DNA of 64,000 nt from Mycobacteriales bacterium (GTDB taxonomy: Bacteria; Actinomycetota; Actinomycetes; JAFAQI01): assembly GCA_035547515.1 (NCBI GenBank), contig DASZUS010000008.1:28257-92256 (forward strand). Reading direction: 5' to 3'. Under the pieces are notes generated by a model that was not told the DNA's origin, made no database searches, and saw only the letters and a program-made list of their open reading frames with translations. Position 1 is the first letter of the stretch. Every line of letters starts with the position of its first letter. Below, piece after piece: positions 48,693 through 64,000 of this stretch. A program made the translations under genes and the position numbers.

Positions 48693-51371
48693 GTGACCCC
48701 ACCAACACAACAAAGTAAGACTAGTTTTGTGGTGGTCGGCGGCGGTGCGGCAGGCACCCTCGTCGCGACGCGCCTGCTCGACGAGTCGGCGCGGCGCCAT
48801 CTCTCGATGACAGTCACGGTCGTCGAGCCCCGCGCGGCGCTCGGCCGCGGGATCGCGTACTCCGCGGCGGACCGCCGCCACGTCCTCAACGTGCCCGCGC
48901 TGAAGATGACCGCGTATCCGGAGGACGGCGAGCACTTCCTGCGGTGGCTCGCGCGTCACGGCCGCGAGGTCGCGGAGGCCGACTTCGTCCCGCGGGCGTG
49001 GTACGGCCAGTACCTCGACGACGTGCTCCGGGCCGCGGCGCGCCGCGCGAACCTTGCCGAGCTGCGCGTTGTGCGCGCCCGGGCGACAGGTCTCGAGCGG
49101 GTGGGCACGCGGGCTCGCGTCATGCTCGACACCGGCGAGGACCTGCCGCCGGCCGACGGTGTCGTGCTCGCGCTGGGGCACCTCGGCGTCGAGACCGGCT
49201 GGGCGCCGCCGGCCCTTCGCGAGTCGAAGCGCTTCATCGCCGACCCCTGGGCAGCCGGCGCCCTCGACGGCGTACCGGAGGACGCCGACGTGATGTTCGT
49301 CGGCTCGGGGCTGACGATGGTCGACGCGGCCCTCCAGCTCGACCGGCCGGGCCGGACGCTGCGGGTGGTCTCGCGCCACGGCCTGCTGCCGCGGCGGCAC
49401 GTGCGCGACCTGCTTCCCGCGATGGAGGCGCCGCAGTTCTCGTGCGAGGCGCCGACGCTGGCGGAGCTGCGCAGGGTGATGTCGGCGCACATCGACAAGG
49501 CGCAGCGGCGGTACGGCGACTGGCGTCCGGCGATCGACAGCATTCGCGCCCTGACCCCCAAGCTGTGGGCCGGCCTCGACCCGGCCGACCGTGCCGAGTT
49601 CGTGCGCACCGACGCTCGCGCGTGGGACGCGGTGCGGCATCGCATCCCGCCCGACAGCGCGGAGCTCATCCACCAGATGCGCGGGGCGGGCCGGCTCGTG
49701 CTCACTCCCGGCGAGGTGGCGGCGGTGGTCGAGAGCGACGCTGGCCTCGCCGTACGTCTCTCGGACGGCTCGTCGGCCATGGTCGGGGCAGTGGTCAACT
49801 GCACGGGACCCTGCGATCGGCCGGAGCGCAGCCGCGACCCGTTCGTCCAGTCGCTGCTGGCGGCGGACCTCGCGCGAAGCGGGCCGCTCGGGATCGGGTT
49901 CGACACGCGCCCGGACGGCCGCCTCATCGGGCGTGACGGCAGTGACGACTTGCCGCTGTTCACCCTCGCGGCGCTTCGCAAGGGCTCGCTGTGGGAGTCG
50001 ACGGCGATGCCCGAGATCCGGGTGCAGGCCGCCCACGTCGCGCGATGTCTCGTCGGGCCGGCCCGCCACGAGCCGGTGCGCCCGACCGACCAGTACGGGC
50101 TGGCCGTATCGACCACCGCCGAGGCGGCGGAGCTGTGGCGGCAGGCGCTGGACCGGATCCGCCGGGTGCAGGCGGGGGCGCCGGAGCTGATCGCGGCAGC
50201 CCTCGAGATCGACCCAGCCTTTGCCCTCGGGCACGCCGCTCTCGCGTTGCTGGCGCGCGAGTGCGAGGCCGACGTCGACGCGGCGGCGTCGCTGTCGTGT
50301 GCGATCGACGCGATGCGGCTGCGGGCGGACGCCCGGGAGATCAGCTTCATCCGCATGGTCGAGGCGCGGCTGGTCGAAGAGCCCGCCACCGCGGACGAGC
50401 AGCTGCTGCGGCACATCAAGCAGCATCCGATCGACTGCCTCGCGGTGAGCGCGGCGCTGCCGACGATCGCCTTCAGCGGGGTGGCGCAGCCGATCGAGCA
50501 GGCATGGGCGCTGGTCGACTCGCTCGCACCCGAGTACGGCGACGACTGGTGGTTTCGCAGTCTCGCGGCCTTCACCCGCCAGGAGCAGGAGCGCTTTGCC
50601 GAGGCCGAGGAGCTGGCCGAGCAGGCGCTCGCCTTCGAGCCGGCTGCCGGGCACGCCGTGCATGCCCGCGCACACATCACCTATGAGACCGGCGACCACC
50701 TCGCGGGTCTGGCCTGGCTGGATCGATGGATCGACGAGCACGGCGGGGACACCAACCACCGCGCGCACTTCGTGTGGCACGCGGCGTTGCACGAGATCGC
50801 GATGGGTGACTTCGACGCGGCGCTGCGGCGCTACCACGAGCAGCTCGCGCCGCCGCGGGTCACCGGGGCGCGGGCGCTGGTCGACTCGGCGTCGCTGTTG
50901 TGGCGGCTGCGGATGCTCGGCGTGTCGATCGGGTGTGCCGAGATGCTGCCGACCCTGGCAGCGGTGGACCAGTGCGTCTTCGACCGCCCGGCGACGACCT
51001 TCACCGCGCTTCATGCGGCCATCGGACTGGCCGGTGCAGGCGACCTCGCCGCTCTCGCCGCTCTGGAGTCCTACGCCGCCGAGCATCCCAACCGCTCGTT
51101 CGCGGTAGCCGTCGTACCGCTGTGCCGCGGGCTCGCGGCGGTGGCCGATAGCCGGCCGGCCGACGCGGTCGGCCCGCTCACCGCCCTGCGCACCATGGGG
51201 CTGCGCCGCTTCGGGGGGAGCGCGGCCCAGCAGGAGGTCGTGGAGGAGACGCTGCTGCACGCACTCGTCGCATCGGGCCGTCGGGCTGAGGCCGCGACCT
51301 TGCTGGACGAGCGGCACCAGCGACGGCGGTCCCCGGGCGACCAGCGCCGCCTGGAGGCTCTCCTCAGCTGA
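48693..51371 (+). CDS. FAD/NAD(P)-binding domain protein fused to a TPR (TTC38-like) domain
   Basis: 892 aa from a GTG start. The N-terminal Rossmann motif is FVVVGGGAAGTLVATRLL, with a second dinucleotide motif at MFVGSGLTMVDAAL. The C-terminal ~400 aa are helical repeats (HFVWHAALHEIAMGDFDAALRRY), resembling TTC38-type TPR proteins. The longer antisense ORF is an Arg-rich artefact. Confidence 0.6.
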   Translation: MTPPTQQSKTSFVVVGGGAAGTLVATRLLDESARRHLSMTVTVVEPRAALGRGIAYSAADRRHVLNVPALKMTAYPEDGEHFLRWLARHGREVAEADFVPRAWYGQYLDDVLRAAARRANLAELRVVRARATGLERVGTRARVMLDTGEDLPPADGVVLALGHLGVETGWAPPALRESKRFIADPWAAGALDGVPEDADVMFVGSGLTMVDAALQLDRPGRTLRVVSRHGLLPRRHVRDLLPAMEAPQFSCEAPTLAELRRVMSAHIDKAQRRYGDWRPAIDSIRALTPKLWAGLDPADRAEFVRTDARAWDAVRHRIPPDSAELIHQMRGAGRLVLTPGEVAAVVESDAGLAVRLSDGSSAMVGAVVNCTGPCDRPERSRDPFVQSLLAADLARSGPLGIGFDTRPDGRLIGRDGSDDLPLFTLAALRKGSLWESTAMPEIRVQAAHVARCLVGPARHEPVRPTDQYGLAVSTTAEAAELWRQALDRIRRVQAGAPELIAAALEIDPAFALGHAALALLARECEADVDAAASLSCAIDAMRLRADAREISFIRMVEARLVEEPATADEQLLRHIKQHPIDCLAVSAALPTIAFSGVAQPIEQAWALVDSLAPEYGDDWWFRSLAAFTRQEQERFAEAEELAEQALAFEPAAGHAVHARAHITYETGDHLAGLAWLDRWIDEHGGDTNHRAHFVWHAALHEIAMGDFDAALRRYHEQLAPPRVTGARALVDSASLLWRLRMLGVSIGCAEMLPTLAAVDQCVFDRPATTFTALHAAIGLAGAGDLAALAALESYAAEHPNRSFAVAVVPLCRGLAAVADSRPADAVGPLTALRTMGLRRFGGSAAQQEVVEETLLHALVASGRRAEAATLLDERHQRRRSPGDQRRLEALLS

Positions 51372-51447: not shown

Positions 51448-51828
51448 CTAGTCGTTGACGGTCGGAAGGCCTTCGGCGCGCCAGGCGCGGTAGCCGCCGA
51501 TCAGGTCCGTTGCACGCCGGATGCCCAGGTTGCGCAGGCTGTCGGCGGCGAGGCTCGAGGCGTAGCCCTCGTTGCAGCACAGCACCACCCACGCGTCGTA
51601 CGACGCGAACGGCAGTCGTGCCTCGGAGGCCGGGTCGAGCCGCCACTCGAGGACGTTGCGGTCAATCACCACCGCGCCGGGGATCTCGCCTTCGATGACC
51701 CGGTTCACCTCGGGGCGGATGTCGATGATGAGCGCGCCTTCTGCCTGCGCGGCGAATGCTTCCTTCGGGGTCAGCCGCGACAGCCGCGACCTGGCATTGG
51801 CCAGTGCCTGGCTGATCGTCATCGTCAT
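51448..51828 (-). CDS. single-domain rhodanese-like sulfurtransferase
   Basis: The ATG at 51828 gives 126 aa. The rhodanese pattern is LIIDIRPE...GEIPGAVVIDRN..EW...VVLCCNEGYASSLAA..L...G...DLIGGYRAW. ATGA overlap with the upstream cysteine dioxygenase gene. Confidence 0.75.
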   Translation of the reverse strand: MTMTISQALANARSRLSRLTPKEAFAAQAEGALIIDIRPEVNRVIEGEIPGAVVIDRNVLEWRLDPASEARLPFASYDAWVVLCCNEGYASSLAADSLRNLGIRRATDLIGGYRAWRAEGLPTVND

Positions 51829-52337
51829 GCCGGCACCGCGCTCGGTGCCCGCCGGCCGATGGCAGCCTCGCGGTCCTCTCGGGTCGAGACGGTGCGCACT
51901 CGCGCGAGCCCGCTCGGGTGCTGGGCGTAGAACGACATCTCCGACAGCGGTGGGGAGTAGGCATGCAGGCTCACCGCTGCCGCGGGTCCGGCGTTGTAGA
52001 CGTCGTGGACCGTCGTCGGGGAGATCGCCACGGACTTGCCCGCCGTGACAACCGTCGTACGGGTCTCCAGCGCCTCGGGCATTGCGCGGACCTCGGTCAG
52101 CGCGCCCTGGACGACGAGGAACGCGCCCGACGAACCGCCGTGGTCGTGCAGCTCGGTGCCTTGGCCGGTCAACCAGGTGAGCAACCAGATGTCCGCACAG
52201 TCGTTGCCTTGCAGCCGCCGCCACCAGCGGCCGGAGGCGTCGAATCGCGCCAGGCTGCGCCACTGCGAGGCGCGGTCGGCGAGCCGCTCGAGGACGGCTA
52301 CTAGCTGCGTTGCGTCGAGTGTCTGGAGGGAAGCCAT
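51825..52337 (-). CDS. cysteine dioxygenase type I family (cupin) protein
   Basis: The ATG at 52337 gives 170 aa (an alternative GTG is at 52358). The cupin metal motif is WLTGQGTELHDHGGSSGAFLVVQGALTE, with a later HDVYN...VSLHAYSPPL. Confidence 0.7.
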   Translation of the reverse strand: MASLQTLDATQLVAVLERLADRASQWRSLARFDASGRWWRRLQGNDCADIWLLTWLTGQGTELHDHGGSSGAFLVVQGALTEVRAMPEALETRTTVVTAGKSVAISPTTVHDVYNAGPAAAVSLHAYSPPLSEMSFYAQHPSGLARVRTVSTREDREAAIGRRAPSAVPA

Positions 52338-52355
52338 AGAGCAACTGTAGCAGAC

Positions 52356-52367
52356 CACTCAAGTAAC
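52356..52367. promoter_or_regulatory. conserved AT-rich motif CACTCAAGTAAC, copy 1, in the cdo leader
   Basis: It lies in the 34-bp gap between the stop of the PDO-rhodanese gene (52372) and the cdo ATG (52337). It matches 53831-53842 at 11 of 12 positions, with a 9-nt identical core CACTCAAGT. Confidence 0.4.
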
Positions 52368-52371: not shown

Positions 52372-53748
52372 TTAAGACACGCTTAACGGCTCGACCAGGT
52401 CGTGCTCGCGCGCAGAGGCGAAGCTGTCGTCGACGAGCACGACCTGGTGGCCCGCACGGTCGAGCAGCGACGCGGCGATCGTGGCGCGGAAGCCGCTCGC
52501 GCAGTGCACCCACCAGCTGTGCTTCGGCAGCTCGGGTAGCCGCGCCATGAGCTCCGGCAGCGGCAGGTGCGTCGCGCCGGGGATGGCGCCGTCGCGGTCG
52601 CGCTCGTCATGGCGTCGCACGTCGAGCACCGTGGCGCCGCCCCGGCTCGCGTGGTCGAGCTCGGCGAAGGTCGCCCGGCGGAAGCTTCGGCGGGGCAGCG
52701 CCGGTGCGATCGAGTCGAGTGGGCCGTGCGCGACGGCTGTGGGCCGGTCGATGCCGATCCGGGCGAGCTGGCGTTGCGCCGCCGCGATCTGCTCGGCGCT
52801 CTCGCCGAGCAGGGTGAGCGGCTCGCCGTACGGGAAGATCCACCCGAGGTAGGTCGCGAACTGCGTGCCGAGCTCGACGGCGATCGACCCCGCCAGGTGG
52901 TCGGCGGCAAACTCGCGGCGGCTGCGGATGTCGACCACCCACTCGCCGGCGGCCAACCGCCGTGCGATCTCCTCGGCGTCCGCGGCGCGCGCCTCGCTGA
53001 GGTCGGCCGCGGTGACTCCCGCGGCGTTTCTCGGCGCCATGTGGGCGTAGTAGGCGGGGTACGGCGTGAAGCCCGCGACCACGGTGTGCACGAACTCGGC
53101 CTCGTCGGGCGCAGTGAGTGCGAGGTTGTTGCGGCGCTCGTCGCCGATGGTGCCACCGGCCGATGCGCTCGGGCTCGGGGGACCGGAGGAGCAGAAGCTG
53201 CCGAAGCCGTGGGTGGGGTAGAGCGCGGCGTCGTCAGGCAGCGAGTCGGCCAGCCGGCGTACCGAGCGGTACTGCGCGAGGGCGAGCGGGTGCGTGAGGT
53301 CGGGGCTGATCAAGTCGGTACGGCCCACTGCGCCGTAGAGCAAGGACCCGCCGCTGAACACCGCCGTCGCGCCGCCGGCATCCGTCACCACGTAGCTCAG
53401 GTGTCCGGGAGTGTGACCGGGCGTCGCGACGACGCGGACGCTGAGGTCGCCCACGAACAGCGTCGTGTCGTCGCCGACCGGAGTGCGCGGGAAGCCCACC
53501 TTCTCGCTGCCAGCCACCAGGTAGTCGACCTTCGCCGAGCGGGCGAGCGCCAGGCCGCCGGTCAGGTAGTCGTTGTGGATGTGCGTCTCGGCCACCGCGG
53601 CGAGCTCGAGGCCTAGCCGGTCGAGCACCTCGCTGATTCGGTCGATGTCGCGCTGCGGGTCGACCACCAATGCATACGACCCGTCGTGCACCACATAGCT
53701 ACGGTCGCCGAGCTCCTCGGTCGGAACTGTCTCAACCTGCACGTGCAT
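52372..53748 (-). CDS. persulfide dioxygenase (MBL fold) fused to two rhodanese domains (CstB-like)
   Basis: 458 aa from the ATG at 53748 (or 472 aa from the GTG at 53790). MBL motifs: ETHIHNDYLTGG and ATPGHTPGH. A middle rhodanese-like domain is followed by a C-terminal rhodanese with the active-site loop VHCASGFRAT (CX5R-type). Confidence 0.75.
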   Translation of the reverse strand: MHVQVETVPTEELGDRSYVVHDGSYALVVDPQRDIDRISEVLDRLGLELAAVAETHIHNDYLTGGLALARSAKVDYLVAGSEKVGFPRTPVGDDTTLFVGDLSVRVVATPGHTPGHLSYVVTDAGGATAVFSGGSLLYGAVGRTDLISPDLTHPLALAQYRSVRRLADSLPDDAALYPTHGFGSFCSSGPPSPSASAGGTIGDERRNNLALTAPDEAEFVHTVVAGFTPYPAYYAHMAPRNAAGVTAADLSEARAADAEEIARRLAAGEWVVDIRSRREFAADHLAGSIAVELGTQFATYLGWIFPYGEPLTLLGESAEQIAAAQRQLARIGIDRPTAVAHGPLDSIAPALPRRSFRRATFAELDHASRGGATVLDVRRHDERDRDGAIPGATHLPLPELMARLPELPKHSWWVHCASGFRATIAASLLDRAGHQVVLVDDSFASAREHDLVEPLSVS

Positions 53749-53830
53749 CCCGTCTCTCGAAGTTGTGACGTGTGTCACTGCGCCGCTCACGTCGCGTTCC
53801 CGTACCGGTCGTGCTATATCTATCTCAACT

Positions 53831-53842
53831 CACTCAAGTTAC
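53831..53842. promoter_or_regulatory. conserved AT-rich motif CACTCAAGTTAC, copy 2, in the divergent promoter region
   Basis: It lies in the AT-rich core (gtgctatatctatctcaactCACTCAAGTTACgcgggttagtcatcaatcta) of the intergenic region between the PDO-rhodanese gene (-) and the SBP56-like operon (+). A GGAGG ribosome-binding site is at 53876-53880. Confidence 0.4.
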
Positions 53843-53884
53843 GCGGGTTAGTCATCAATCTAGCGCCGACGCACGGAGGCAGGA

Positions 53885-56257
53885 ATGCGGTTCCGGTTGA
53901 GCAGTTCAAGACTTGTGGCGGTGGGTGCAGCGCTCGCCGTCGCGTCCGGAGGAGGGGTGGCAGCCGCGTCGACGGGAACGTCGGCCGCGAGCGGCTCGAG
54001 CTCCTTGCTTCCGACGATCACCCGCACCGTCGACACGATCAAAGCCGCGGGCAAAACGGTGGTCGGCAGCGTCAACTACACGGTCAACGAGCCGACCGAG
54101 TCGCGCGCGAGCGCGACCGACACCTACGGCAACCCGCTCGAGGGCCTCTCGCTCAAGGGCCTGCCGAGCCTGCCGGGCGTGGGGGAGGGCCTCCCGTTCG
54201 AGACCGGCAACAACCCGGGGCTGGACAACGAGCCGTCGAGTGAGAACACCGGCAAGTGCCCGCCGCCCGGCAACGGTCACGAGTACCTCATCGTGTGGGC
54301 CGGCAAGATGAACGCCGCCGACCTCACCGGTACCGACATCCTCGACCTGATCAACGGCGGTGCGGTCAACCCCGAGGGTCTGGCCTCCCAGATCCCGATC
54401 GAGTTCCTCGAGACCGGGTCGGACATGATGGCCACGATCGACGCCGAGCCGGGTTGCGCGACGTACGGCAAGGTCGTCAACGTCTCAGTCGTCAGCGGCC
54501 CGGATGGCGTGGAGAACGAGCCGCATCACATGCAGTACACGTGGTACCCCGGCCAGACGGTCTGGGCGGGCGGCCTGTTCACCTCGCGGCTGTTCACCTA
54601 CGACTTGTCCGACCTGCCGCAGGTCAAGCTGACCCGGATCGACGAGCCGTGGTCGACGCCCAGCGGCAGCATCTGGGACGCGTTCGCGACGCTCCCCAAC
54701 GGAGACGCGTACGGCACGCTCATGGGCGGTCCGCTCTACGCCTACGGCACCACGCCGGGCGCGGTCGTCGAGATCGCCGGCAACAACCACCCCGGCGCGC
54801 AGCCCGGCCAGATCCTCGGCGAGTGGCCGGCGTCCGGGTCGGAGGACCTGCTGAACTCGGCGAACACCAACGGCAGCGTGGGCGGCGCTCTCCTGTCGTC
54901 GGTCGGCTCGACGCTGGGGAGCCTGCCTGGTCTGGTGAGCAAGGGCAACGACGACGCGGGCATCAGCACGGCGAACGGTCACATCAAGTGCCCGGACTTC
55001 GGCAGCTGCGCCAACCCGCACGGCATCCAGATCCGAGCCGACCTCCACACGATGGTGACCTCGGACTACGCCGAGCCCGCCCAGATCATCGAGGACCCGG
55101 TCAAGCCGACCAACCCGTACTACTTCCGTCGTACGGTGCGCATCTGGAGCTTCGACGACAAGGGCTGCTCCGGCAACCCGACGCCGGGCGCCACGATCAA
55201 CAACCCGAAGATCTGCGCCATCGACGTGATGCCGCTCGGGCCGCGTGACGACTCGAACCCGGCCCACGGCGAGAACCTCGGGATCATGGAGAACGGCGCG
55301 ACCTGGGACTACCCGCTGCCTGACGGCAACGTGCCCAAGGGCTGGTTCTCCGAGTCGATGTGCGGTGGCGCGGTCTTCTACACGCCGGACATCACCGACA
55401 CCAAGGACCACCCGTGGCACGAGGTCTTCGACTCGACCGCGGCGGTGGCCGCACTGAAGTCCAATGGCGCAGGCAGGGTGCCCGGCGGTGGCGACCTGAA
55501 GAACGAACCGGCCGGCTGCGACGGCGCGGCGTGGGACGTCGTGAGCCCTGACAACCGGTTCCTCGGTCACGCGGTCAGCGGGCGCTACATCCTGCAGGAC
55601 GACTACGACGACGCCGGTACGCCGAAGATGGTCTACACCCTGAGCATCACCAAGCTGCTCGAGGCCGGCGACCACTACAAGTGCAACCTCGCGAACAACA
55701 TCCGCGCGCTCGCCGACCCGACGCTGGGCGGCAAGGACTGCCCGACGGTGGCCGGTGTGGTCCCGATCAACGACCCGACCTCGGGTGGCCCGCACTGGGC
55801 GGAGTTCGACAACTTCCGCCTGGCCGCGGTCAAGATCAAGGACCCGAAGACCGGCAAGACGGTGATCGACTACCACGCCCCGACCCGGATCGCGGAGGCG
55901 AACTACTTCGTCGCCCGGACCGGCGTCGACGGCAACCACACCGTCTGCATGATCAACATGAACCCGACCACGGGCTCGCTCTCGCTCGACACCAGCTTCA
56001 TCGACGAGACCGAAGGCACGCCCTGCGTCCAGTTCAACCGACGGGACTGGCCGGACCCGAACATCAAGGGGTTCTACAAGCCGCACTCGATGCTGTTCGT
56101 CGAGAACGACCCGCCGGCAACCGGTCTGACCCCGTACGGGCACAACTACGGCCCGAACTGCGAGTTCGGCAAGGTCGTGGACGGTCAGTGCCGCGGCTAC
56201 TGGGGCGAGCCGATCGACATGGGCGCTGATACCGCCGGCTTGAAGTACGAAGAGTGA
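53885..56257 (+). CDS. large secreted SBP56 (selenium-binding protein / methanethiol oxidase)-like protein, 790 aa
   Basis: Signal peptide [21 protein letters not shown]. The motif order is collinear with SELENBP1 as recalled from memory. [17 protein letters not shown] matches CGPGY..[29 protein letters not shown]...ENEPHHMQY matches [20 protein letters not shown]...[31 protein letters not shown] matches [45 protein letters not shown] matches [23 protein letters not shown]. The family assignment is not verified by any search. Confidence 0.55.
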   Translation: [790 protein letters not shown]

Positions 56258-59013
56258 GCGGCCGCCGCTGGCCGCGCCGGGGCAGGAACCTGCTCCGGCG
56301 CGGCGGCGGCGTCGCGCTGCTGACCGTCCTCATCGGACTCGTGACGGCAGCTCCCGCCGCCGCCCACCCGTACCTGCTCAGCAGCAACCCGGCGAACGGC
56401 GCCATCCTCGCGTCCGCCCCCGCCACGATCGACATCAGCTACACCGAGGGCCTCGACCGCCCGTACTGCTCGGTGGTGCTGGTCGCCCCAGACGGCACGC
56501 ACGTCGACACGCACCAGGTTGCCGCGTCCGCTCCGACCGAGCTGGCAGTGGCGCCGGACGCGTCCCTGTCCGAGCAGGGCACCTACGCCGTCAACTGGAC
56601 CGCGGTCGGCGACGACGGCCACACGGTCATCGGCAGCTTCGGCTTCAGCGTCGGCCACCCGAGCGCCAACGCGGCAGTCCAATCCGGCGGCACCGCCGTG
56701 TCGGGAACCGGGTCGAGCTCCGGCGGGGCTCGCCGGGTGCTCGGCGCGGTCCTGCCGTTCGCCGTCATCGTCCTCGCGGGACTGGTCCTGCTGTCGCGGA
56801 CCTTGGCCGCCGCCGGGGCCCGCGCGACTCGGCTGATCCGGGTGGCGTTCGCTGCCTCCGGCGCGCTCGAGCTTGCGCTGGCCGGGATCGCGATCTCCGA
56901 CCACGGGCTGTCGGCGTTCGGCTCGTCGGCGACCGGTCGCCGGCTGATCGCCGAGATCGCGTTGACAGCGGCGGCGGGCCTTGCCGGGCTCGCCCGGACC
57001 TCTCGCCGGCGGACCTGGCTCGGCGGGCTCGCCGCACTGGCACTGCTCGTCGTCCTTGCCGACTCCGGCCACGCGGCATCGCAACCGTCGTCGCGACGCG
57101 ACCTCGTCCTCGCCGTGTACTCCCTGCACCTGCTCGCGGTCAGCATCTGGATCGCTGCGATCGCCGCCGTCCTGCTCCGGCTTCGCACGAGGACAGATGA
57201 CGACCTTGCACCCGACCTGCATCGCTCGCTGCGCACCCTTGTCGCCGTGTCGCTTGTTGCGGTGCTCGCGACAGGCGTTGCGACGACGGACTGGGGCCTG
57301 CGCACCCTGAGCGATCTTCCGCACACCACCTATGGCCGGCTGGCGCTGACGCTTGCCGGCCTCTTCGTGGTCATGGTGTGCCTGGGCATTGCGGCGTCGG
57401 CGTCGCGTCGGATGATCGTGGTGGAAGCCGTCGTCGCGGCTGGCGCGCTCGTGGTGGGCGGCGTGATCAGCCAGTCGTCCCTGCCGCTCGACGAGCCCTA
57501 CGCGTCGCAGACATTTGCCGCCTCGACCGGTGTTGCGATGTCCGTGGCACCGGTCGGTGACGACGGCCTGGACATCGCCACGCTGGCGCCGGGCATCGTG
57601 GGCCGCAACACCCTGGTCCTCGAGGTCGGGCACGCCGACGAGGAGGACTTCCTGAGCCCGCAGTCAAGCGTGAGGGCGGTCACCGCGACCGTGTCCTGCG
57701 GCGGCTGCGGAGCGCCGGACCAGCACCTGACGTTGCAGCCGACCGGGGCGGGAGCGGAGTGGACGGCAGACGTCACGTTGCCGCGAGCCGCTTCGTGGCT
57801 GGTCACGGCGGCGGTACGGCGCGCTGGTGCCGCGGCGGAGGTCTCGCGGTTCTCCGAGCGCGTCACGCCCGCGGACCTTCCCGACCAGGTCGTCATCGGC
57901 GTCCCTGCGGCGTTGTCCGGACCTAGCGGATCGACCTGCCGTGACCAGCTGCTCGGGCTCCAGGTCGCGCTGCAGGATCTCAACGCGCAGGCAGCCGACC
58001 ACGGCGACCTCATGCGCGTCGTCGCAGTGGACCTGCACGACGGCGTCACGCAAGCGATGGCACGGCTGCACTCCCTCGGTGCGCGGCTGATCGCCATGCC
58101 GTGCGGCACCGCGGACCAGGTCGACCGAGCCACCTCCCTGGCCCGCGCCGCCGGGCTGCCGGTGGTGGCGGGGGAGGGCTCGGTGACCGACCGGCAGGCC
58201 GGGGTCTGGTCGACCCAGCCGTCGTGGCAGGCCGAAGGCGCCGCGATCGCCAACCAGGCGCTGCGCCAGGACGCTAAGAGCGTCGTCGCCGTTGCGGGGA
58301 CGACCGCGGTGGACCAGGCCGAGCTCGCCGGGTTGCGGCAAGGTCTCGCCGGGCATGCGGTGGCGCTGCGCGTGACGGGCTTTCCGGCGAGGCCGCGGAG
58401 CTTCGTCGGCGGTCTCTACCGTGCCGACACCGACGTGGTCGTGCTGCTCGGCGACCGCACGGAGGCCGATCCCACAGTGCACTCGTTCTCCGCCGTGAAC
58501 GCGGACACCGGATGGGCGCCGACGCACGGCATCCTTGCGTCGGCCCAGCTGATGAGCACGGACTTCATCAACGGCGCCGGCAACATCACCCGGGTCGGGG
58601 GGATCGAGTTCGCGAGCGACATCAACCCGTTCGACCCGATCGCCCAGTACTACGCCAGCCGGCTGCGCGCGCTCGCCCCCGGCGTACGCCCGACCTTCGA
58701 TGGCGTGCACGGTTACGACGCCGGTCTGCTGGTGGCGGAGGCGTTGCGTGACGGCGGCGGCCGGCCGTCGCCGTCGTCGCTCGCGAAGCTGCTCGGCTCG
58801 CACTTCACCGACTTCACGGTCGGCAGCTACCAACTCGACTGGCAGCCCGACGGCGGTACGTCGACGTCGCTGGCGTTCTTCCGCTCCACGTACGTCAACC
58901 CGATGGCGATGCCGTCGTTCGCGCCGGGCGGCGCCGCGGCCCTTGCCCACGAAGGAACATTTCTCAATGCCGGCGGCTTCGAACAAGTCGCCCCGTTTAG
59001 GAGGTTGTCGTGA
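56254..59013 (+). CDS. CopC - CopD - (YtkA-like?) - type 1 periplasmic-binding-protein fusion, 919 aa
   Basis: GTGA overlap with the upstream gene. A signal/TM segment is followed by a CopC domain that begins with the predicted mature N-terminal His. The CopC sequence is AAAHPYLLSSNPANGAIL...TIDISYTE...GTYAVNWTAVGDDGHTVIGSFGFSV. About 8 TM helices follow, consistent with CopD. Next is a roughly 120-aa beta-rich region containing SCGGCG. The C-terminal ~330 aa resemble LivJ-type PBP1 (VVIGVPAALSGPSG...AMPCGTAD...VVAVAGTTAVDQAE...FDGVHGYDAGLLVAEAL). Confidence 0.65.
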   Translation: MSGRRWPRRGRNLLRRGGGVALLTVLIGLVTAAPAAAHPYLLSSNPANGAILASAPATIDISYTEGLDRPYCSVVLVAPDGTHVDTHQVAASAPTELAVAPDASLSEQGTYAVNWTAVGDDGHTVIGSFGFSVGHPSANAAVQSGGTAVSGTGSSSGGARRVLGAVLPFAVIVLAGLVLLSRTLAAAGARATRLIRVAFAASGALELALAGIAISDHGLSAFGSSATGRRLIAEIALTAAAGLAGLARTSRRRTWLGGLAALALLVVLADSGHAASQPSSRRDLVLAVYSLHLLAVSIWIAAIAAVLLRLRTRTDDDLAPDLHRSLRTLVAVSLVAVLATGVATTDWGLRTLSDLPHTTYGRLALTLAGLFVVMVCLGIAASASRRMIVVEAVVAAGALVVGGVISQSSLPLDEPYASQTFAASTGVAMSVAPVGDDGLDIATLAPGIVGRNTLVLEVGHADEEDFLSPQSSVRAVTATVSCGGCGAPDQHLTLQPTGAGAEWTADVTLPRAASWLVTAAVRRAGAAAEVSRFSERVTPADLPDQVVIGVPAALSGPSGSTCRDQLLGLQVALQDLNAQAADHGDLMRVVAVDLHDGVTQAMARLHSLGARLIAMPCGTADQVDRATSLARAAGLPVVAGEGSVTDRQAGVWSTQPSWQAEGAAIANQALRQDAKSVVAVAGTTAVDQAELAGLRQGLAGHAVALRVTGFPARPRSFVGGLYRADTDVVVLLGDRTEADPTVHSFSAVNADTGWAPTHGILASAQLMSTDFINGAGNITRVGGIEFASDINPFDPIAQYYASRLRALAPGVRPTFDGVHGYDAGLLVAEALRDGGGRPSPSSLAKLLGSHFTDFTVGSYQLDWQPDGGTSTSLAFFRSTYVNPMAMPSFAPGGAAALAHEGTFLNAGGFEQVAPFRRLS

Positions 59014-59651
59014 AGCTCGCTCAGCTCGGCGGTGTCGCCGCGGGAGCGACAGCGGTTCTGCTGGTCTCCGGGTGCGGCGGCGGTTCGACCCCAAGCCCGT
59101 CGTCGCACCCGGTCACGGCGAGGCCCGCCGCGGCAGTGGCGCCGGTGACGACCGGCTGCACCGGGGCGATGCTGCCGAAGGGCTTCACGGTCGACGCCGC
59201 GCACACCGGCAAGCTCACGGCACACAACTACAGCGCGACGGCCGATGTGCAGGCGGCGCTGGAGTACGACCAGATGACCGACGGCGGCCGCGACGTATGG
59301 CTGAAGCGAGCGAAGTCGGGACGGATCACTCAGGTGGCCAGCTGCATCGCGATGCCGTTCCCGTCGGCGCACATCGCCAACCGGTTCTTCATGTCCTACC
59401 GGCAGCTGCGCACGGACGCGGGATCCATCGTGCATCGCATCGCGCTGCCGAAGCCGGTCGCCGGTCTGGCGGGCGTCACGGCGTACCTCGAGACGCAGCA
59501 GTCGTTCCGCGGGTACCACATCGCCTCGACGAACGTGATCGAGGCGGCGGGCCGGGACGGCTCACGGCTCGACATCGTGTCGGTAGCGGGCTCCTCGCCG
59601 TCAGCCGCGCTCGCGCAACGGCTGCTGGCCGCGATGGCGGGTGCCGCATGA
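59010..59651 (+). CDS. lipoprotein, hypothetical (213 aa)
   Basis: Lipobox AVLLVSGCGG. GTGA overlap with the upstream gene. No domain recognised. Confidence 0.55.
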   Translation: MKLAQLGGVAAGATAVLLVSGCGGGSTPSPSSHPVTARPAAAVAPVTTGCTGAMLPKGFTVDAAHTGKLTAHNYSATADVQAALEYDQMTDGGRDVWLKRAKSGRITQVASCIAMPFPSAHIANRFFMSYRQLRTDAGSIVHRIALPKPVAGLAGVTAYLETQQSFRGYHIASTNVIEAAGRDGSRLDIVSVAGSSPSAALAQRLLAAMAGAA

Positions 59652-60298
59652 GCGCGCGTCGCAGCGCTGTGGCCCTCGCCCTGGCAGCGCTCGGCTTCGC
59701 CGTGGCGGGCTGCAGCAGTGGCTCCTCGCCGTCCGCGAGCCCCTCCAGTCCGGCTGTCGCGTCGAGCCCGTCGACCGTGCAGACGGTCCCGCCCGGACCC
59801 GTCGTACCGAGCTCGCCTTCGCTGTCGCTGGCCGACATCGCCGATCCTGGGCTCGCATCCCACATCGGCGACGGCAAGCTGACCGTCGCCCAGGTCAGGC
59901 AGCTCATGCAGTTCTTCGAGAACAAGGTCAGCGCCGCGTATGCCCACGGCGACGCGGACGCCCTCGACCACTACCTCGCGGGGCCGATGCTGTCGGGCAA
60001 CCGGGCAACGATCAACCTGCTCAACAGCCAGAACAAGCTCAACGTCTACCGGATCAGGGTTGGCAAGGTGACGATCGAGACGAACGAGAAGACCAGCGTG
60101 ATCTTCGACATGACCGGCGACATGGTTCTCGACTACTTCCTCGACTCGAAGACGCACAAGGTCCTCGAGCACGGATTGCCCGGGCCGAGCCAGGTGCAGT
60201 TCGCGGTGTTCTTCAACGAGAACCCGAAGAACCACACGTGGTACTGGACCGGTGAGAAGTCCGAGACCGCTAGCGACTCGTCGGGGGCAGGCCAGTGA
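59648..60298 (+). CDS. lipoprotein, hypothetical, possibly NTF2-like fold (216 aa)
   Basis: Lipobox LGFAVAGCSS, then a Ser/Pro linker, then a ~140-aa domain (VAQVRQLMQFFENKVSAAYAHGDADALDHYL...VIFDM.GDMVLDYF). ATGA overlap with the upstream gene. Confidence 0.55.
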   Translation: MSARRSAVALALAALGFAVAGCSSGSSPSASPSSPAVASSPSTVQTVPPGPVVPSSPSLSLADIADPGLASHIGDGKLTVAQVRQLMQFFENKVSAAYAHGDADALDHYLAGPMLSGNRATINLLNSQNKLNVYRIRVGKVTIETNEKTSVIFDMTGDMVLDYFLDSKTHKVLEHGLPGPSQVQFAVFFNENPKNHTWYWTGEKSETASDSSGAGQ

Positions 60299-61296
60299 GG
60301 CGGGCGAGGCTCGCGGCCGCTCTCGCCGGTCTGGTGGCGGCGGCGGTCGCGGCGCCGGCCGCCGCCGCGTCCGCTGGGGCGCGCTCTGCCGGGCACCCCG
60401 GGATCCTGCGGTTGTCCGGCGTGCTGCGGCTGGCGAGCGGGAGCTGCGCCGGCGGAACGCCCAGCGGGAGCTATCTGTCCGTCACGTTCGGAACGCGCGC
60501 GATCGACAACCCGGCGTCGGACTGCGAAGGCGGCGCGGTGACGCTGCTCTCGCCAGGACGTGAGGGCCTATCGACGACGTCGTTCTCCCCGGCTTCGGAG
60601 GACGGATTCGACGGTCGCGGCAATGCCGTGGCCCAGTCGATCACCCGCCCGGTCGCCTTCGGCAAGCACCTGCTCGGCCTCGTCAGCTCGGCCCAGGACT
60701 TGCAGGACGCGCCAACCGGGCCTGGCTTGTTCTCGCTGCCGCACATCTACGTGACAGGGGACAAGGTCCTGGCCGACGTCCGGTCGGTGCAGGTGCTCTA
60801 CGGCGGGCAGGCCGACACCACCTGTGCGTCCGGAGCCGGAGCCGGGTGCTGGCTGATCGGCGCGGAGCGAGCCACGGGGACCTACGACGCGGCGACCCGC
60901 CACATCACGCTGTCGTGGTTTTCCGGGCAGTCGTTCGTGCCGCAGTCGGCGGGGACCGCAGTGCATCTGTCCGGCACCTTCGTGGGAGCCGAGCCGAAGC
61001 CCGTGAGCACGCACGGCGTGGTCGAGCTCGGCACGTCGAGCTTCAGCGCCGCTTCGCCGCCACCCGCAGTCGTCGCCGCGATCCGGCACAGCTCGCCACC
61101 TCCCGCTCGGGCGGCGAAGCGCCGCGCGGTGGCAGCTTCCGGCCCGGCCTCCGAGCGGTCGGCGCTCACCGGCGGGGAGGACTCGCCGCTGTGGCGCGTG
61201 CTCGGTTCGCCATTGGCGCTCGCCGTCGCGACGTTGCTGATCGGGGTCGACGGGCTGCTGCTGGCCGGCGCAGTGGGGCGAAGGCGGACGCGGTGA
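60295..61296 (+). CDS. secreted protein of uncharacterised paralog family (member 1) with C-terminal TM anchor (333 aa)
   Basis: Signal peptide (LAGLVAAAVAAPAAAAS). The ~200-aa core is shared with the 61293-62006 and 62613-63326 products: GTPSGSYLSV, FDGRGN, ATGTYDAATRHITLSWFSG, HLSGTF. An Ala/Pro-rich linker follows, then LALAVATLLIGVDGLLLAGAVGRRRTR. GTGA overlap with the upstream gene. Confidence 0.6.
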   Translation: MRRARLAAALAGLVAAAVAAPAAAASAGARSAGHPGILRLSGVLRLASGSCAGGTPSGSYLSVTFGTRAIDNPASDCEGGAVTLLSPGREGLSTTSFSPASEDGFDGRGNAVAQSITRPVAFGKHLLGLVSSAQDLQDAPTGPGLFSLPHIYVTGDKVLADVRSVQVLYGGQADTTCASGAGAGCWLIGAERATGTYDAATRHITLSWFSGQSFVPQSAGTAVHLSGTFVGAEPKPVSTHGVVELGTSSFSAASPPPAVVAAIRHSSPPPARAAKRRAVAASGPASERSALTGGEDSPLWRVLGSPLALAVATLLIGVDGLLLAGAVGRRRTR

Positions 61297-62006
61297 TCGC
61301 CCACCGTGGCCGCCGGGCACTGGCCGCCCTGACGGCGGGCGCTGCGCTCGTCCTCGCGGCGGGCTGCAGCGGCACGCACCAGACCACGCCGGACGCGACG
61401 CACCTCGACGGGCTGTTCCGCATCGCTCCCGGCGCCTGCCCGGCGGCCTCCGGCCTGCCTACCGGCAGCTACCTCGTCGTGCTCTCGGCCGCGTCGGGCG
61501 GCACCGTCGGCAACCCGCACGGCGGGTGCAAGAACCCGGCGTACACCCTGCTCGACCCTGGCACCGACGGCGGGCTGGTGACCGGAGAGTTCCAGCAGGT
61601 CTCGGGACCGACGTTCGACCGCCACGGCAACTCGCGCGACGGGCGGATCATCGCGCCGGTGCGCTTCGGCAAGCTCGACGTCGGCTTCGGCACGAGCTCG
61701 CGGGACGAGCAGGACGCGCCTGCCGGAGCGCCCGCCTTCCCGGTCCCGTCCGCAATCGTCCGGGGCAGCGCGCTGTCGGTGGACCTGCGCTCGTTGGTGG
61801 TGAGCTACGCGGGCGACGCGGACACGAGCTGCAAGACGACGTACGGCGTCGGCTGCTGGGAGCTCGGCTCGGAGAACGCCACTGGCACCTACGACGCAGC
61901 GACCGGCCACTACAGCATCCAGTGGTTCTCCGGTGCGTCGTTCACGCCGAAGGGCGACTCGATCGAGGTCCATCTCGAAGGCACGTTCGTCCCGTCCTCC
62001 TCGTGA
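61293..62006 (+). CDS. lipoprotein of the same uncharacterised paralog family (member 2, 237 aa)
   Basis: Lipobox ALVLAAGCSG. Core motifs: GLPTGSYLVV, LDPGTDGGLVTGEFQ, FDRHGNS, ATGTYDAATGHYSIQWFSG, HLEGTFVPSS at the end. GTGA overlap with the upstream gene. Confidence 0.6.
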   Translation: MIAHRGRRALAALTAGAALVLAAGCSGTHQTTPDATHLDGLFRIAPGACPAASGLPTGSYLVVLSAASGGTVGNPHGGCKNPAYTLLDPGTDGGLVTGEFQQVSGPTFDRHGNSRDGRIIAPVRFGKLDVGFGTSSRDEQDAPAGAPAFPVPSAIVRGSALSVDLRSLVVSYAGDADTSCKTTYGVGCWELGSENATGTYDAATGHYSIQWFSGASFTPKGDSIEVHLEGTFVPSSS

Positions 62007-62599
62007 GCCGGCGAGCGTCGCTGGCCATCGGCACCGCGATCCTCGTGGTGCTCGGCTGCGGAGCGGGCGTTGCGGCTGGCCGGGGTGGTGGGGACGCGTC
62101 GGCCAGCGCGGACCTGATCGCGCCGTTGTCGACGGCCGACCGGTCGGCGCTTGCCGCTGATCACCAGCTGGTCGAGAGCCTGCCGGGCGCCCTTGCCGAG
62201 GTGCCCCGCGCCGCGGCGGATGCGGCACGCGTCGACGCCGCGACGGCGAGGTCGGAGCTCGCCGGCAATGCCGCGCTGCACGACCTTGCTGAGGCCGCCG
62301 AAGGGCGCTCGGCGGCCGTGTCGCTGCTGGTCTCGGACTACCGGGAGCTGCTCGCCGGCCGCCCGTTGCACGACGTCGCCGCGATGCCGCAGGCGTTGGC
62401 ATCGCTGCAGGCAATTGAGGGCGACATCGTGCCGGCGGTGCGGGTGGTCGCCTTCACACACGGCCGGCGGCTGACGGCCACAGCGGCGTACGAGGCGGTC
62501 GCGGGCGACCACCGGGCGCCGGAGCTTGCCCGGCTGCTGGCCGACTGGTCGCAGGCCTACGGCGTGCTTGTGCTGATGGAGCAGAAGGCGCTCGGCTGA
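62003..62599 (+). CDS. lipoprotein, Ala-rich helical, hypothetical (198 aa)
   Basis: Lipobox-like AILVVLGCGA. GTGA overlap with the upstream gene. It is the last gene of the + strand operon. Confidence 0.5.
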   Translation: MSRRASLAIGTAILVVLGCGAGVAAGRGGGDASASADLIAPLSTADRSALAADHQLVESLPGALAEVPRAAADAARVDAATARSELAGNAALHDLAEAAEGRSAAVSLLVSDYRELLAGRPLHDVAAMPQALASLQAIEGDIVPAVRVVAFTHGRRLTATAAYEAVAGDHRAPELARLLADWSQAYGVLVLMEQKALG

Positions 62600-63326: not shown

Positions 63327-63334
63327 GGCACTCC

Positions 63335-64000
63335 TCATGCGGCGACGGGATCGGTGGCGACCGAGGCTTCGGCCGGGGTGTCGGGACGGCGTTGCGGCGG
63401 TGCGCCGGCTGCGATCGCGGCGAAGAAGACCAACGCGCCCGGTACGACGAAGAACCAGGGGAACAGCATGAACGAGGGCAGCGACGAGATCGCCTGGAAG
63501 CGCGGCAGGCTGTCGCTCATCGCGCCGATCATCGGTGTCATGTCGTTGAGGATGTGCACCCAGTCGGCGTCGAGGGCGGTGATTGACGGGTAGTCGGCCG
63601 CGAGAGCGGCCTGGCTGACCCCGGAGGAGCGCAACGCCGGGACGATGTCGTTGCGGATCGCACCTTGTCCGACCGCCATCGTCGAGAAGTACTGCTGGAT
63701 CTGCCCGATCTTCTGAGGCGTCTCGATCTGCTTGAAGGTGCTCATCATGTCGGCGCCCTTCGGCGCCCGGTCGAACATCTGCGTCGCAACCGGGGCGAGG
63801 ATCAGCGCGATCCCGATCACGGCCAGGCCGATCCGGGTGGGCTGGGGCGGCAGCGCCCCGAGCAGGCCCGCGATGGCGAGCGCTGCCATGAGAACGCCGG
63901 GGATGACGAAGAACCACGGGAACAGCCGGAAGCTGGGCAGTGCGGCCATCGCCTGGTAGTTGCCGAGGTTGTCCTGCACCTTGTCGAGCAGGTCGGTCAT
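63335..64000 (-). CDS. membrane protein with internally duplicated TM module (at least 221 aa; start coincides with the window edge)
   Basis: An ATG sits exactly at 63998-64000, so the gene may extend beyond the window. Two copies of a module are present: YQAMAALPSFRLFPWFFVIPGVLMAALAIAG and FQAISSLPSFMLFPWFFVVPGALVFFAAIAAG. A ~110-aa soluble region separates them. The stop lies 8 bp upstream of paralog 3's start. Confidence 0.5.
   Translation of the reverse strand: MTDLLDKVQDNLGNYQAMAALPSFRLFPWFFVIPGVLMAALAIAGLLGALPPQPTRIGLAVIGIALILAPVATQMFDRAPKGADMMSTFKQIETPQKIGQIQQYFSTMAVGQGAIRNDIVPALRSSGVSQAALAADYPSITALDADWVHILNDMTPMIGAMSDSLPRFQAISSLPSFMLFPWFFVVPGALVFFAAIAAGAPPQRRPDTPAEASVATDPVAA

Follow-up and report, generated by a model that had tools for sequence, protein, structure and literature searches.

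Volatile sulfur compounds such as methanethiol hold a key intermediate position in the sulfur cycle. To our knowledge, MtoX/SELENBP1 is the only known methanethiol oxidase family, and nearly all work on it concerns Proteobacteria and animals. Representatives of this SBP56 group (PF05694; NCBIfam model NF052453) are MtoX of Hyphomicrobium sp. VS, SPOA0269 of Ruegeria pomeroyi (RpMTO) and human SELENBP1. The first SBP56 proteins to be described were regarded as binding proteins. The characterised members of the superfamily are enzymes (PMC5739008). Four strictly conserved histidines are putative copper ligands: His89, His90, His140 and His412 of the Hyphomicrobium enzyme, equivalent to His88, His89, His141 and His424 of RpMTO (PMC5739008, PMC10936201). 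In the R. pomeroyi locus, the gene order is mtoX-SCO-cytochrome c peroxidase. The products of the oxidase feed a persulfide dioxygenase in this species (PMC10936201). The PDB holds no metal-bound SBP56 structure; the only solved SBP56 structure is 2ECE, the hypothetical selenium-binding protein ST0059 of Sulfolobus tokodaii. A second point of comparison is thiocyanate dehydrogenase (TcDH) of Thioalkalivibrio (5F75/5OEX), a secreted seven-bladed copper propeller that acts on a sulfur compound. Its site comprises Lys103, His135, His136, His206, Asp314, His381, His437, His482 and His528, and Glu288 is also an active-site residue (PMC6504805). The gene encoding TcDH is bordered by copCD, which is co-induced with it (PMC5744179).

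The gene studied here lies in a 64-kb window, the whole stretch of DNA that was analyzed. An open reading frame of 790 amino acids (aa) was found at 53885..56257 on the plus strand, exactly where the earlier note had placed it; features inside it are given below in the same coordinates and on the same strand. Its GC content at codon positions 1/2/3 is 0.59/0.50/0.93. Since this GC3 pattern is typical for a genome of ~70% GC, we consider the frame to be a real gene. A Shine-Dalgarno sequence, GGAGG, can be read directly at 53875..53879, 5 nucleotides 5' of the ATG. The protein begins with a Sec-type signal peptide (aa ~1-30, 53885..53974, cleavage site approximate), recognizable by a basic N-terminus, a hydrophobic stretch at aa 10-29 and a pLDDT of ~30. 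No RR motif was seen on inspection of the N-terminus, in agreement with the Sec-type secretion proposed earlier. The unusual size is also real: R. pomeroyi MtoX has 436 aa, and the target family is about 200-350 residues longer than MtoX owing to a hairpin, a linker, loop insertions and a tail.

Because direct sequence searches of Pfam and the PDB came up nearly empty, structure prediction and profile-profile methods were adopted. No Pfam family, PF05694 included, matched the target at E<=0.1, and phmmer of the target against PDB sequences returned nothing. When 30 family members were compared with PF05694, 21 gave weak partial matches only, the best at 1.8e-6. A family profile searched against the PDB at E<=1 found only 2ECE, in a 38-residue match, and one chance match. 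The NCBIfam MtoX model NF052453 was matched with 34.2 bits (E 9e-9) against a cut-off of 650 in one stretch, aa 175-261 versus model positions 32-114 of 408. The HMM coverage of the SBP56 assignment made in the earlier note is thus limited to these 87 residues and does not extend over the full length; taken literally, the missing PF05694 match speaks against that assignment by the note's own standard.

The AlphaFold2 (AF2) model has a pTM of 0.75; disorder in about 250 residues lowers its mean pLDDT to 65.9. In a Foldseek search of the PDB, the best match was 2ECE (E 3.4e-14, TM 0.67 normalised to 2ECE), which leads the list by six orders of magnitude over the next propellers, nitrous-oxide reductase (N2OR) and TcDH among them (E ~1e-7 to 1e-6). 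A beta-propeller was accordingly predicted, as anticipated, with 2ECE as the nearest solved structure. The two proteins share the block DF(L/I)AV(I/V)D...TY.K(V/I)V...NE.HH, which on the 2ECE side reads DFIAVVDVNPKSETYSKIV...NDELHH. They differ in that 2ECE is a cytoplasmic protein of 462 aa, whose crystals contained no metal. Structurally aligned, the two are 12% identical, with an rmsd of 7 Å over 674 columns. The predicted propeller core (aa 125-745, 54257..56119) has 28 strands in seven blades. DSSP gave the same arrangement, 3 + 6x4 + 1 = 28 core strands, for the models of the target and of R. pomeroyi MtoX (alignment A3), and in both models a conserved polar residue opens each inner strand. 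Blade 7 of the target model is closed by the C-terminal strand 732-741 together with the N-terminal strands 133-140, 180-186 and 197-203.

Profile-profile comparison of the family (A1) with MtoX by hhalign yielded a probability of 97.1% and an E value of 5e-11 over 211 columns, covering MtoX 55-277. Sequence similarity of the C-terminal half to MtoX was not significant (E 0.03-0.2); homology of this half is supported by the predicted fold and topology rather than by sequence. In an exhaustive profile search, proteins of ~440 aa (P0338, P0341, P0364, P0371, P0386 and P0284) matched the family profile at E 1e-23 to 1e-34. These bridging proteins also exceed the PF05694 gathering score, with 38-74 bits. 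Identity between the family and MtoX is about 19-21% (alignment A3). The earlier note had recognized four blocks in the same order as in SELENBP1. The first of them (...ENEPHH) aligns with SBP56 proteins far beyond chance, as judged from NF052453, 2ECE and hhalign, but no other block is significant individually. Its suggestion of a divergent subfamily fits these data well: direct HMM scores are weak, yet the fold, hhalign and the bridging proteins all link the protein to SBP56. We are therefore highly confident that the target is an SBP56-superfamily propeller. The kinship holds at the superfamily level only, and "methanethiol-oxidase-like" is fair as a resemblance but not established as a function.

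What makes the protein long is not an extra domain. The ~130-aa N-terminal extension described before is present and resolves into three parts: the signal peptide, a beta-hairpin that is conserved (aa 44-68, 54014..54088) and a disordered Pro/Gly/Ser linker (aa 69-124, 54089..54256). The hairpin, with the motif VNYTVN / TNHLV, consists of strands 44-54 and 57-68 in the AF2 model (pLDDT 73-81, DSSP). Its Asn64 is kept in 29 of the 30 family members, and the hairpin is missing from MtoX and the bridging proteins (alignment A3). The linker has a pLDDT below 35 and is found only in the subfamily of 750-830 aa, being a gap in the short subfamily. A Gly/Ser-rich insertion was likewise confirmed, at aa ~325-370 (54857..54994), but only within the 750-830-aa subfamily. 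It contains 65% G/S/T/A/P/N, has a pLDDT below 50 over residues 329-366 and directly precedes the invariant CANPHG motif (C375, H379). The C-terminal tail (aa 746-790, 56120..56254), of low pLDDT and with a Cys759/Cys769 pair, is restricted to the long and the ~690-aa subfamilies. No Pfam or NCBIfam domain was found in the extensions, and apart from the hairpin AF2 predicts just insertions that are disordered or form short helices there. The additional domains that had been considered for the extra ~320 aa were therefore rejected in favour of hairpin, disordered linkers, loop insertions and tail.

About 80 positions of the ~600-aa propeller are invariant in the family alignment. Among the residues identical in 30 of 30 members are H214, H215, D265, C375, H379, E469, H637, H685 and H734. 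His214-His215 (ENEPHH, 54524..54529) align with the putative copper ligands His88/His89 of MtoX, and H214 is invariant across the family, the bridging proteins and MtoX. In alignment A3, His424 corresponds to H734, and the putative ligand His141 is replaced by Asp265 in all 30 members. Hence the metal ligands to which the earlier note pointed are kept at three positions (H214, H215 and H734), and the fourth histidine has given way to aspartate. We chose H734 as the His424 equivalent because local C-terminal alignments consistently pair KPHSMLF with RAHIMRF, because it is invariant in 18 of 18 sequences of the alignment with bridging proteins and because in both proteins the histidine belongs to the inner strand that ends blade 7. 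A global hhalign run (-glob -mact 0) had paired His424 with H637, with a confidence of zero, and was rejected for these reasons. The ligands of MtoX have been assigned by inference, because the PDB holds no metal-bound structure, and mapping them onto the target shares that limit.

Further differences surround the putative site. Tyr204 and Asn365, invariant in MtoX itself, correspond to the invariant histidines H379 and H637, and Glu469 corresponds to MtoX Glu269 (alignment A3). The predicted target site thus comprises His214/His215, Asp265, His379, Glu469, His637 and His734, compared with His88/89, His141, Tyr204, Glu269, Asn365 and His424 in MtoX. These residues would line the central channel, each opening the inner strand of its blade in the model; the ring geometry was deduced from strand order. 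Because the site has more histidines than that of MtoX, plus an aspartate, it may hold two or three copper ions. Trp223 of MtoX aligns with the invariant Pro398, and the region of Trp386 aligns with FVAR-TG, which is free of Trp; the tryptophan-derived, TTQ-like cofactor that this Trp pair is proposed to form in MtoX is probably not used by the target. Cys28, needed for RpMTO activity, lies in the sequence TCQSPYM, for which the cluster-1 counterpart is GGDCS. A family-wide equivalent of this catalytic or substrate-binding cysteine is doubtful: the nearest residue, Cys125 (KCPPPG), is 4-5 residues off and present in only 13 of the 30 members. Cys375 and the pair Cys600/Cys619, which may form a disulfide, are invariant in the family and added relative to MtoX.

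The target gene is probably translated together with its downstream neighbour. The GTG start of the latter overlaps the TGA stop of the target (GTGA), which points to translational coupling. The partner (56254..59013, plus strand) is a fusion of 919 aa composed of CopC, a multi-transmembrane (TM) CopD, an Ig-like region and a domain resembling type-I periplasmic binding proteins (PBP). CopC was recognized by PF04234 with 63 bits, and the NCBIfam scores for CopC (66.6 bits, cut-off 95) and CopD (47.3 bits, cut-off 195) are both under their cut-offs. The orthologue in locus L001 matches PF05425 (CopD) and, weakly, Peripla_BP_6. Like YcnJ of Bacillus subtilis, the partner has a CopC with a mature N-terminal histidine (AAAHPYLL) and a DGH motif, followed by the CopD-like multi-TM part. 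It differs from YcnJ and CopCD by an additional extracytoplasmic region of ~500 aa, Ig-like and type-I PBP-like, and by the low CopD score (47 versus 195); in the Pseudonocardiaceae subfamily the partner has no CopC domain. In about 60 of 79 genome loci, the next gene downstream encodes CopC/CopD-PBP or its CopC-less homologue. Homology between these two kinds of partner was established by hhalign (99.5%, E 2e-22); the partner of the short subfamily had no Pfam or NCBIfam matches and was identified by hhalign only. A copper-handling protein encoded directly downstream and a sulfur-metabolism context are shared with mtoX loci, as are export and the seven-bladed propeller with its 28-strand topology and homologous N-terminal half. 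In place of SCO1/SenC plus MauG, however, the target has CopC-CopD-PBP, and neither SCO1 nor MauG genes were found in the window or in the related loci examined.

The sulfur link comes from the upstream genes. Divergently transcribed from the target is a gene for a 472-aa protein with an MBL fold and a C-terminal rhodanese domain (52372..53790, minus strand; PF00753 + PF00581), which resembles persulfide dioxygenases and sulfurtransferases and has GloB-like and weak Blh matches in NCBIfam. It is followed by a gene for a rhodanese-domain protein (51448..52362, minus strand; PF00581, E 6e-10; NCBIfam MoeB-type rhodanese region), of 304 aa as the longest frame with an approximate start, and by a gene for an 892-aa FAD/NAD(P)-binding protein (48693..51371, plus strand; PF13454, E 2e-39). 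The MBL-rhodanese gene adjoins a target homologue in L005, L008-L012, L014, L028, L029 and L032, and MBL-rhodanese, rhodanese and FAD genes accompany the target here and in these loci as well as in L053. In L001, the FAD, MBL and rhodanese domains are joined in one gene of 935 aa. In Pseudonocardiaceae loci, a Sulf_transp gene of the YeeE/YedE type and one for Rrf2 lie two genes downstream, and three independent subfamily contexts feature sulfur genes. The link of these genes to the target is one of adjacency, and co-regulation with it is hypothetical. Downstream of the partner, five overlapping genes for lipoproteins or secreted proteins (59010-59651, 59648-60298, 60295-61296, 61293-62006 and 62003-62599, plus strand) were delimited by frame-specific GC3 and lipobox N-termini. 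They are syntenic with L001 (tblastn), L005 and L009-L012 and had no Pfam or NCBIfam matches. A second target copy and genes for Rrf2, cupredoxin, BNR or Sulf_transp were not found within the 64-kb window.

The altered predicted metal site and the copper-handling partner make it probable that the target is a copper enzyme of sulfur metabolism, as yet uncharacterised, and not an ordinary MtoX. Our preferred reading, to which we assign a probability of roughly 0.55, is a Sec-exported SBP56-superfamily propeller of a deeply divergent clade that acts as a copper-dependent oxidoreductase of sulfur compounds. That it is a copper protein is somewhat better founded than this reading as a whole; for a sulfur compound as substrate the odds are about even, and for methanethiol specifically we are doubtful. 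The coupled CopC-CopD-PBP partner would deliver copper to the propeller outside the cytoplasmic membrane, in the role that SCO1/SenC has as chaperone in classical mtoX operons. The propeller would then oxidise a small reduced sulfur compound extracellularly, the leading candidate being a volatile thiol such as methanethiol, and the released sulfide or sulfane sulfur might be handled by the adjoining cytoplasmic MBL-rhodanese, rhodanese and FAD proteins. A bolder version is tentative: the clade may represent a new class of extracytoplasmic multicopper propeller enzymes in soil Actinomycetota, Chloroflexota and Dormibacterota. In these, the channel site of the SBP56 scaffold would have been rebuilt with Asp, Glu and five or six His, the enzyme would be matured by or docked to a CopD-PBP partner in the membrane that is dedicated to it, and the cell-surface reaction would be a sulfur transformation other than methanethiol oxidation, acting for example on sulfide, polysulfide, thiocyanate, COS, CS2 or larger thiols.

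Of the other readings, a true methanethiol oxidase survives best, though we consider it unlikely. The target would then be a loop-decorated enzyme with chemistry equivalent to that of MtoX, CH3SH + O2 (+H2O) -> HCHO + H2S or sulfane sulfur (+H2O2), and another copper chaperone would mature it. Among characterised enzyme families MtoX is the closest, both proteins are exported, and of the four putative His ligands three are retained. A family member is also present in Pseudonocardia sulfidoxydans (L069), a degrader of dimethyl disulfide. The persulfide-type detoxification neighbours would suit an H2S or sulfane-sulfur product (PMC10936201). Against this stand the score of 34 bits versus 650, the missing PF05694 match, the exchange of His141 for Asp and of the invariant Tyr204 and Asn365 for His, the loss of Trp223 and Trp386, Cys28 without a family-wide equivalent, and loci that contain neither SCO1 nor MauG in any case examined.

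A non-enzymatic role appears less probable still. Here the propeller would be the extracytoplasmic metal-binding or receptor part of a system that acquires copper, or another metal or selenium, for import together with CopC-CopD-PBP. The conserved neighbour is indeed the CopD-type membrane protein and not any sulfur gene, several lipoproteins are co-operonic with the target, and binding was the role first ascribed to SBP56 members. Since proteins of the CopD/YcnJ family are proposed copper importers (PMC13344008, PMC12362106), the propeller could serve copper uptake rather than receive copper. On the other hand, the ~80 invariant positions, which include a seven-residue polar ring and CANPHG, fit a catalyst better than a carrier, the characterised superfamily members are enzymes, and sulfur genes recur in the three subfamily contexts.

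Least probable by a narrow step is a multinuclear copper propeller like TcDH or the CuZ site of N2OR, which would pass electrons to a cupredoxin or cytochrome acceptor instead of O2 and act on thiocyanate or inorganic sulfur: the His-rich ligand ring with an HH pair and Asp recalls His135/His136, Asp314 and five more His of TcDH (PMC6504805), copCD adjacency is common to TcDH clusters, the orthologous cluster L001 has cupredoxin and BNR-repeat genes (BNR also occurring in the TcDH cluster), and both proteins are among the Foldseek matches, but the family profile has no sequence similarity to TcDH or N2OR in the PDB at E<=1, the TcDH match (E 1.5e-6, TM 0.45) is much weaker than that of 2ECE, and no cupredoxin or cytochrome gene is found within the window nor a cyanase seen nearby. 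Round the blades, the ligands of the target follow the order HH, D, H, E, W, H, H, whereas those of TcDH, in sequence order, are HH, H, D, H, H, H, H. TcDH is also Tat-exported and clustered with flavocytochrome c. Orthology to TcDH was rejected on sequence, fold score and ligand order; copC/copD beside a propeller gene is a shared context and no proof of membership.

If the target is a copper-dependent sulfur oxidoreductase, reduced sulfur in soils would have a sink or a route of transformation that has gone unrecognised. The protein would also be a natural variant of the MTO site (His to Asp, Tyr/Asn to His, no TTQ Trp, no MauG) that bears on how SBP56 enzymes use copper, and the CopD-PBP partner would offer a tractable system for how CopD-family proteins metallate extracytoplasmic enzymes. 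Our literature searches on the actinobacterial clade found no paper, and its proteins are mostly annotated "hypothetical protein". Relatives were detected in 427 species-level genomes and, at 50% identity, in 676 clusters. The clade belongs to monoderm soil phyla and not to Proteobacteria: it abounds among the Actinomycetota, Chloroflexota and Dormibacterota of soil and peat.

The 790-amino-acid (aa) ORF at 53885..56257 (+), which the earlier note described as an enlarged secreted SBP56/methanethiol-oxidase-like protein, was found in the sequence as claimed. Its codon-position GC content (0.59/0.50/0.93, in an actinobacterial window of ~70% GC) is that of a genuine gene, and a GGAGG ribosome-binding site is located 5 nt 5' of the ATG. 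The proposed Sec-type signal is plausible, because the N terminus carries basic residues and a single hydrophobic segment (aa 10-29) without a twin-arginine motif. The only record of the exact protein is an unnamed Logan sequence. The 90% cluster to which it belongs is made up of Mycobacteriales MAG entries annotated 'hypothetical protein', and family members bear this name or, now and then, 'selenium-binding family protein'. A literature search retrieved no papers on this clade.

A full-length match to the SBP56 family model PF05694 was not obtained: no Pfam family matched the protein at E ≤ 0.1, and phmmer against all PDB sequences gave no match. The NCBIfam equivalog model of the methanethiol oxidase (MTO) MtoX matched aa 175-261 only (34 bits, cut-off 650; E 9e-9). 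This region coincides with the block ending in ENEPHH that had been recognized as shared with SBP56 proteins, and we regard this local sequence match as genuine despite its low score. There are 294 homologues of 600-860 aa, annotated mostly as 'hypothetical'; in 21 of the 30 used for a family alignment, PF05694 matches were weak and partial. When this alignment was compared by hhalign with a profile built around the experimentally validated Ruegeria pomeroyi mtoX (taken from the megaplasmid), 211 columns were aligned to MtoX residues 55-277 (97.1% probability, E 5e-11). When 1.84 billion representatives were searched exhaustively with an HMM, 676 relatives emerged, 113 of them at E<1e-30. Among the 676 are proteins of ~440 aa (E 1e-23 to 1e-34) that pass the PF05694 gathering score with 38-74 bits and, judged by sequence, are intermediates joining the target family and SBP56.

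An AlphaFold2 model based on the family alignment predicted a beta-propeller (pTM 0.75), with a mean pLDDT of only 65.9 because ~250 residues are disordered. The top PDB neighbour of this model was 2ECE from Sulfolobus tokodaii, the sole SBP56 structure in the PDB (E 3.4e-14; TM 0.67, normalised to 2ECE), followed by generic seven-bladed propellers at E ~1e-7 and thiocyanate dehydrogenase (TcDH) at 1.5e-6. Predicted fold and remote homology thus establish membership in the SBP56 superfamily.

Since pairwise profiles detected no significant similarity between the C-terminal half of the family and MtoX (E 0.03-0.2), secondary structures were compared. The target model and the AlphaFold2 model of MtoX (pLDDT 82.9, pTM 0.84) both open with three N-terminal strands, continue with six complete blades of four strands, and end with a single C-terminal strand that closes blade 7, giving 28 core strands each. 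In both, a conserved polar residue marks the start of each inner strand. Using residue counts and an alignment including the ~440-aa bridging proteins, we equated MtoX His88/His89 with target H214/H215 (blade 1), His141 with D265 (blade 2), Tyr204 with H379 (blade 3), Glu269 with E469 (blade 4), Asp321 with the W550 region (blade 5), Asn365 with H637 (blade 6), and His424 with H734 (blade 7). All 30 family members share residues H214, H215, D265, C375, H379, E469, H637, H685, and H734. In MtoX, the putative Cu ligands are His88/89, His141, and His424 (PMC5739008; PMC10936201). Given these equivalences and the invariance in 30/30 members, three of the four His residues proposed as conserved ligands are retained, and the fourth, His141, is replaced by Asp265. 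Conversely, Tyr204 and Asn365, invariant non-His residues in MtoX, correspond to His in the target. At position 265, bridging proteins have either His or Asp, and at position 379 either Tyr or His, which is consistent with a stepwise remodelling of the site. The predicted central-channel site has more His residues than that of MtoX plus an Asp, and for this reason could hold several Cu ions. For Cys28, essential in the R. pomeroyi enzyme, the family offers only a near-equivalent, Cys125, restricted to a subfamily (13/30 members). According to the alignment and counts, the target lacks the two tryptophans Trp223/Trp386 from which a TTQ cofactor has been proposed to form, with Pro398 at the first position.

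The protein is indeed larger than MtoX (790 versus 436 aa). From the N terminus onward, the surplus comprises the signal peptide, a beta-hairpin at aa 44-68 that is conserved (29/30 members have Asn64), a disordered Pro/Gly linker spanning aa 69-124, an insertion behind the WAG strand (aa 141-178), a Gly/Ser-rich loop at aa ~325-370 (previously placed at ~300-380), a hairpin inserted into blade 6 (aa 646-666), and a tail of 45 residues that carries a Cys pair. Several smaller loops were also found, including a helix flanked by Cys600 and Cys619, an invariant pair. The linker, the Gly/Ser loop, and part of the tail are confined to the subfamily of 750-830 aa (Mycobacteriales/Frankiales); the core family length is ~610 aa, and orthologues of 610 aa include Psed_1640 of Pseudonocardia dioxanivorans and genes from Kutzneria and Saccharopolyspora. 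The suggestion of additional domains did not hold, as no further folded domain was predicted or detected.

Directly downstream is a gene at 56254..59013 (+), whose GTG start overlaps the TGA stop of the target ORF (GTGA). It encodes an unusual four-part fusion of CopC (PF04234, 63 bits), a CopD-like multi-transmembrane part, an Ig-like region, and a type-I PBP-like domain. A tblastn survey of 79 genome loci placed this partner directly behind the propeller gene in the long (750-830-aa), ~690-aa, and Solirubrobacterales subfamilies. Its place in the ~610-aa subfamily of Pseudonocardiaceae/Frankiales is taken by a ~550-650-aa gene corresponding to the partner protein minus CopC (hhalign 99.5%, E 2e-22, 500 columns). 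Because the partner or its CopC-less homologue follows across subfamilies, propeller and CopD-PBP are a conserved two-gene module. The MAG Mycobacteriales bacterium SMAG_U5591 harbors two long-form genes, 90% and 92% identical to the target (loci L008 and L014), each with its own CopC-CopD-PBP gene. CopC-less Pseudonocardiaceae homologues are located, for example, at L002:11850-13622 and L007:11820-13631, and in several such ORFs an apparent signal peptide is followed by a short motif rich in His, such as AHGGG or AHEHPG.

Upstream, on the divergent side, are an MBL-fold plus rhodanese gene (52372-53790) and a rhodanese protein gene, followed by a gene for an 892-aa FAD/NAD(P)-binding protein (PF13454; 48693-51371, (+)). 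This trio was found again in L005, L008-L012, L014, L028, L029, L032, and L053. In L001, a single 935-aa gene, homologous to that of the 892-aa protein, fuses FAD, MBL, and rhodanese domains (with Pyr_redox_2); at the sequence level, this Rosetta-stone fusion ties the FAD protein functionally to the MBL-rhodanese gene. The coordinates noted for the L001 FAD homologue are L001:22059-22466. Pseudonocardiaceae loci contain a YeeE/YedE-type sulfur transporter gene and an Rrf2 regulator gene two genes downstream. The 94-bp divergent gap between the MBL-rhodanese gene and the target ORF (53791-53884; gctatatctatctcaactcactcaagttacgcgggttagtcatcaatctagcg) appears relatively AT-rich by eye and is likely a shared promoter/operator region. 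Genes for Rrf2-family regulators are close by in the related loci L005 and L011, and absent from the window.

The reading best supported by the predicted site and gene context makes the protein a secreted copper enzyme that acts in sulfur metabolism. Its fold belongs to a known family; the assigned function is a candidate one. In R. pomeroyi, SCO1/SenC and MauG genes directly follow mtoX; neither is present near the target, and the CopC/CopD partner would supply copper in place of SCO1. This proposal draws on TcDH: copCD genes flank the TcDH gene and are co-induced with it. Sulfide or sulfane sulfur, the expected product, would be passed to the neighbouring cytoplasmic MBL-rhodanese and FAD proteins, paralleling the MTO-PDO link shown in R. 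pomeroyi. Methanethiol is the leading substrate candidate, by homology only. The chemistry may differ from that of MtoX, considering that the site is remodelled, that Cys28 and the Trp pair are missing, and that the maturation genes are different. The main rival is a true MTO; the target falls short of the MtoX equivalog in its score, operon, Cys, and Trp pair, and in the completeness of its His set. Another rival is a TcDH-like multicopper dehydrogenase. The copCD context is shared with TcDH, which also appears in the structure search, but the target is not a relative of TcDH by sequence. A non-catalytic copper-acquisition component is a further rival, which we rank behind a secreted copper enzyme. 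Two features, the changed set of ligands and the obligatory CopD-PBP partner, are specific and testable, and bear on the mechanism of SBP56 enzymes.

In the window and syntenic loci, five genes for lipoproteins/secreted proteins without known family are located behind the partner. Small lipoprotein genes with lipobox N termini and overlapping start/stop codons are found at 59010-59651, 59648-60298, and 62003-62599 (+); their products matched no family. In loci of the long and ~690-aa subfamilies, the partner is followed by homologues of the first two; the third has counterparts in some long-subfamily loci only. The products of 60295-61296 (+), 61293-62006 (+), and 62613-63338 (-) are paralogous secreted proteins/lipoproteins (30-46% mutually identical) without Pfam or NCBIfam match. 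Their homologues, among them a duplicated form of 649 aa, occupy syntenic positions in L001 and further loci. Farther away, a 1224-aa ORF (41829-45503, (-)) combines two branched-chain-amino-acid-type ABC permease and two ABC ATPase domains, and is followed by two ORFs (548 and 486 aa) without family match. The L001 cluster, which contains a target orthologue, also includes genes for a small cupredoxin and a BNR/Sortilin-like protein (coordinates noted as L001:21705-21953 and L001:20506-21576); the TcDH cluster likewise holds a BNR-repeat protein. Finally, a family member is present in Pseudonocardia sulfidoxydans NBRC 16205 (L069), a species that degrades dimethyl disulfide.
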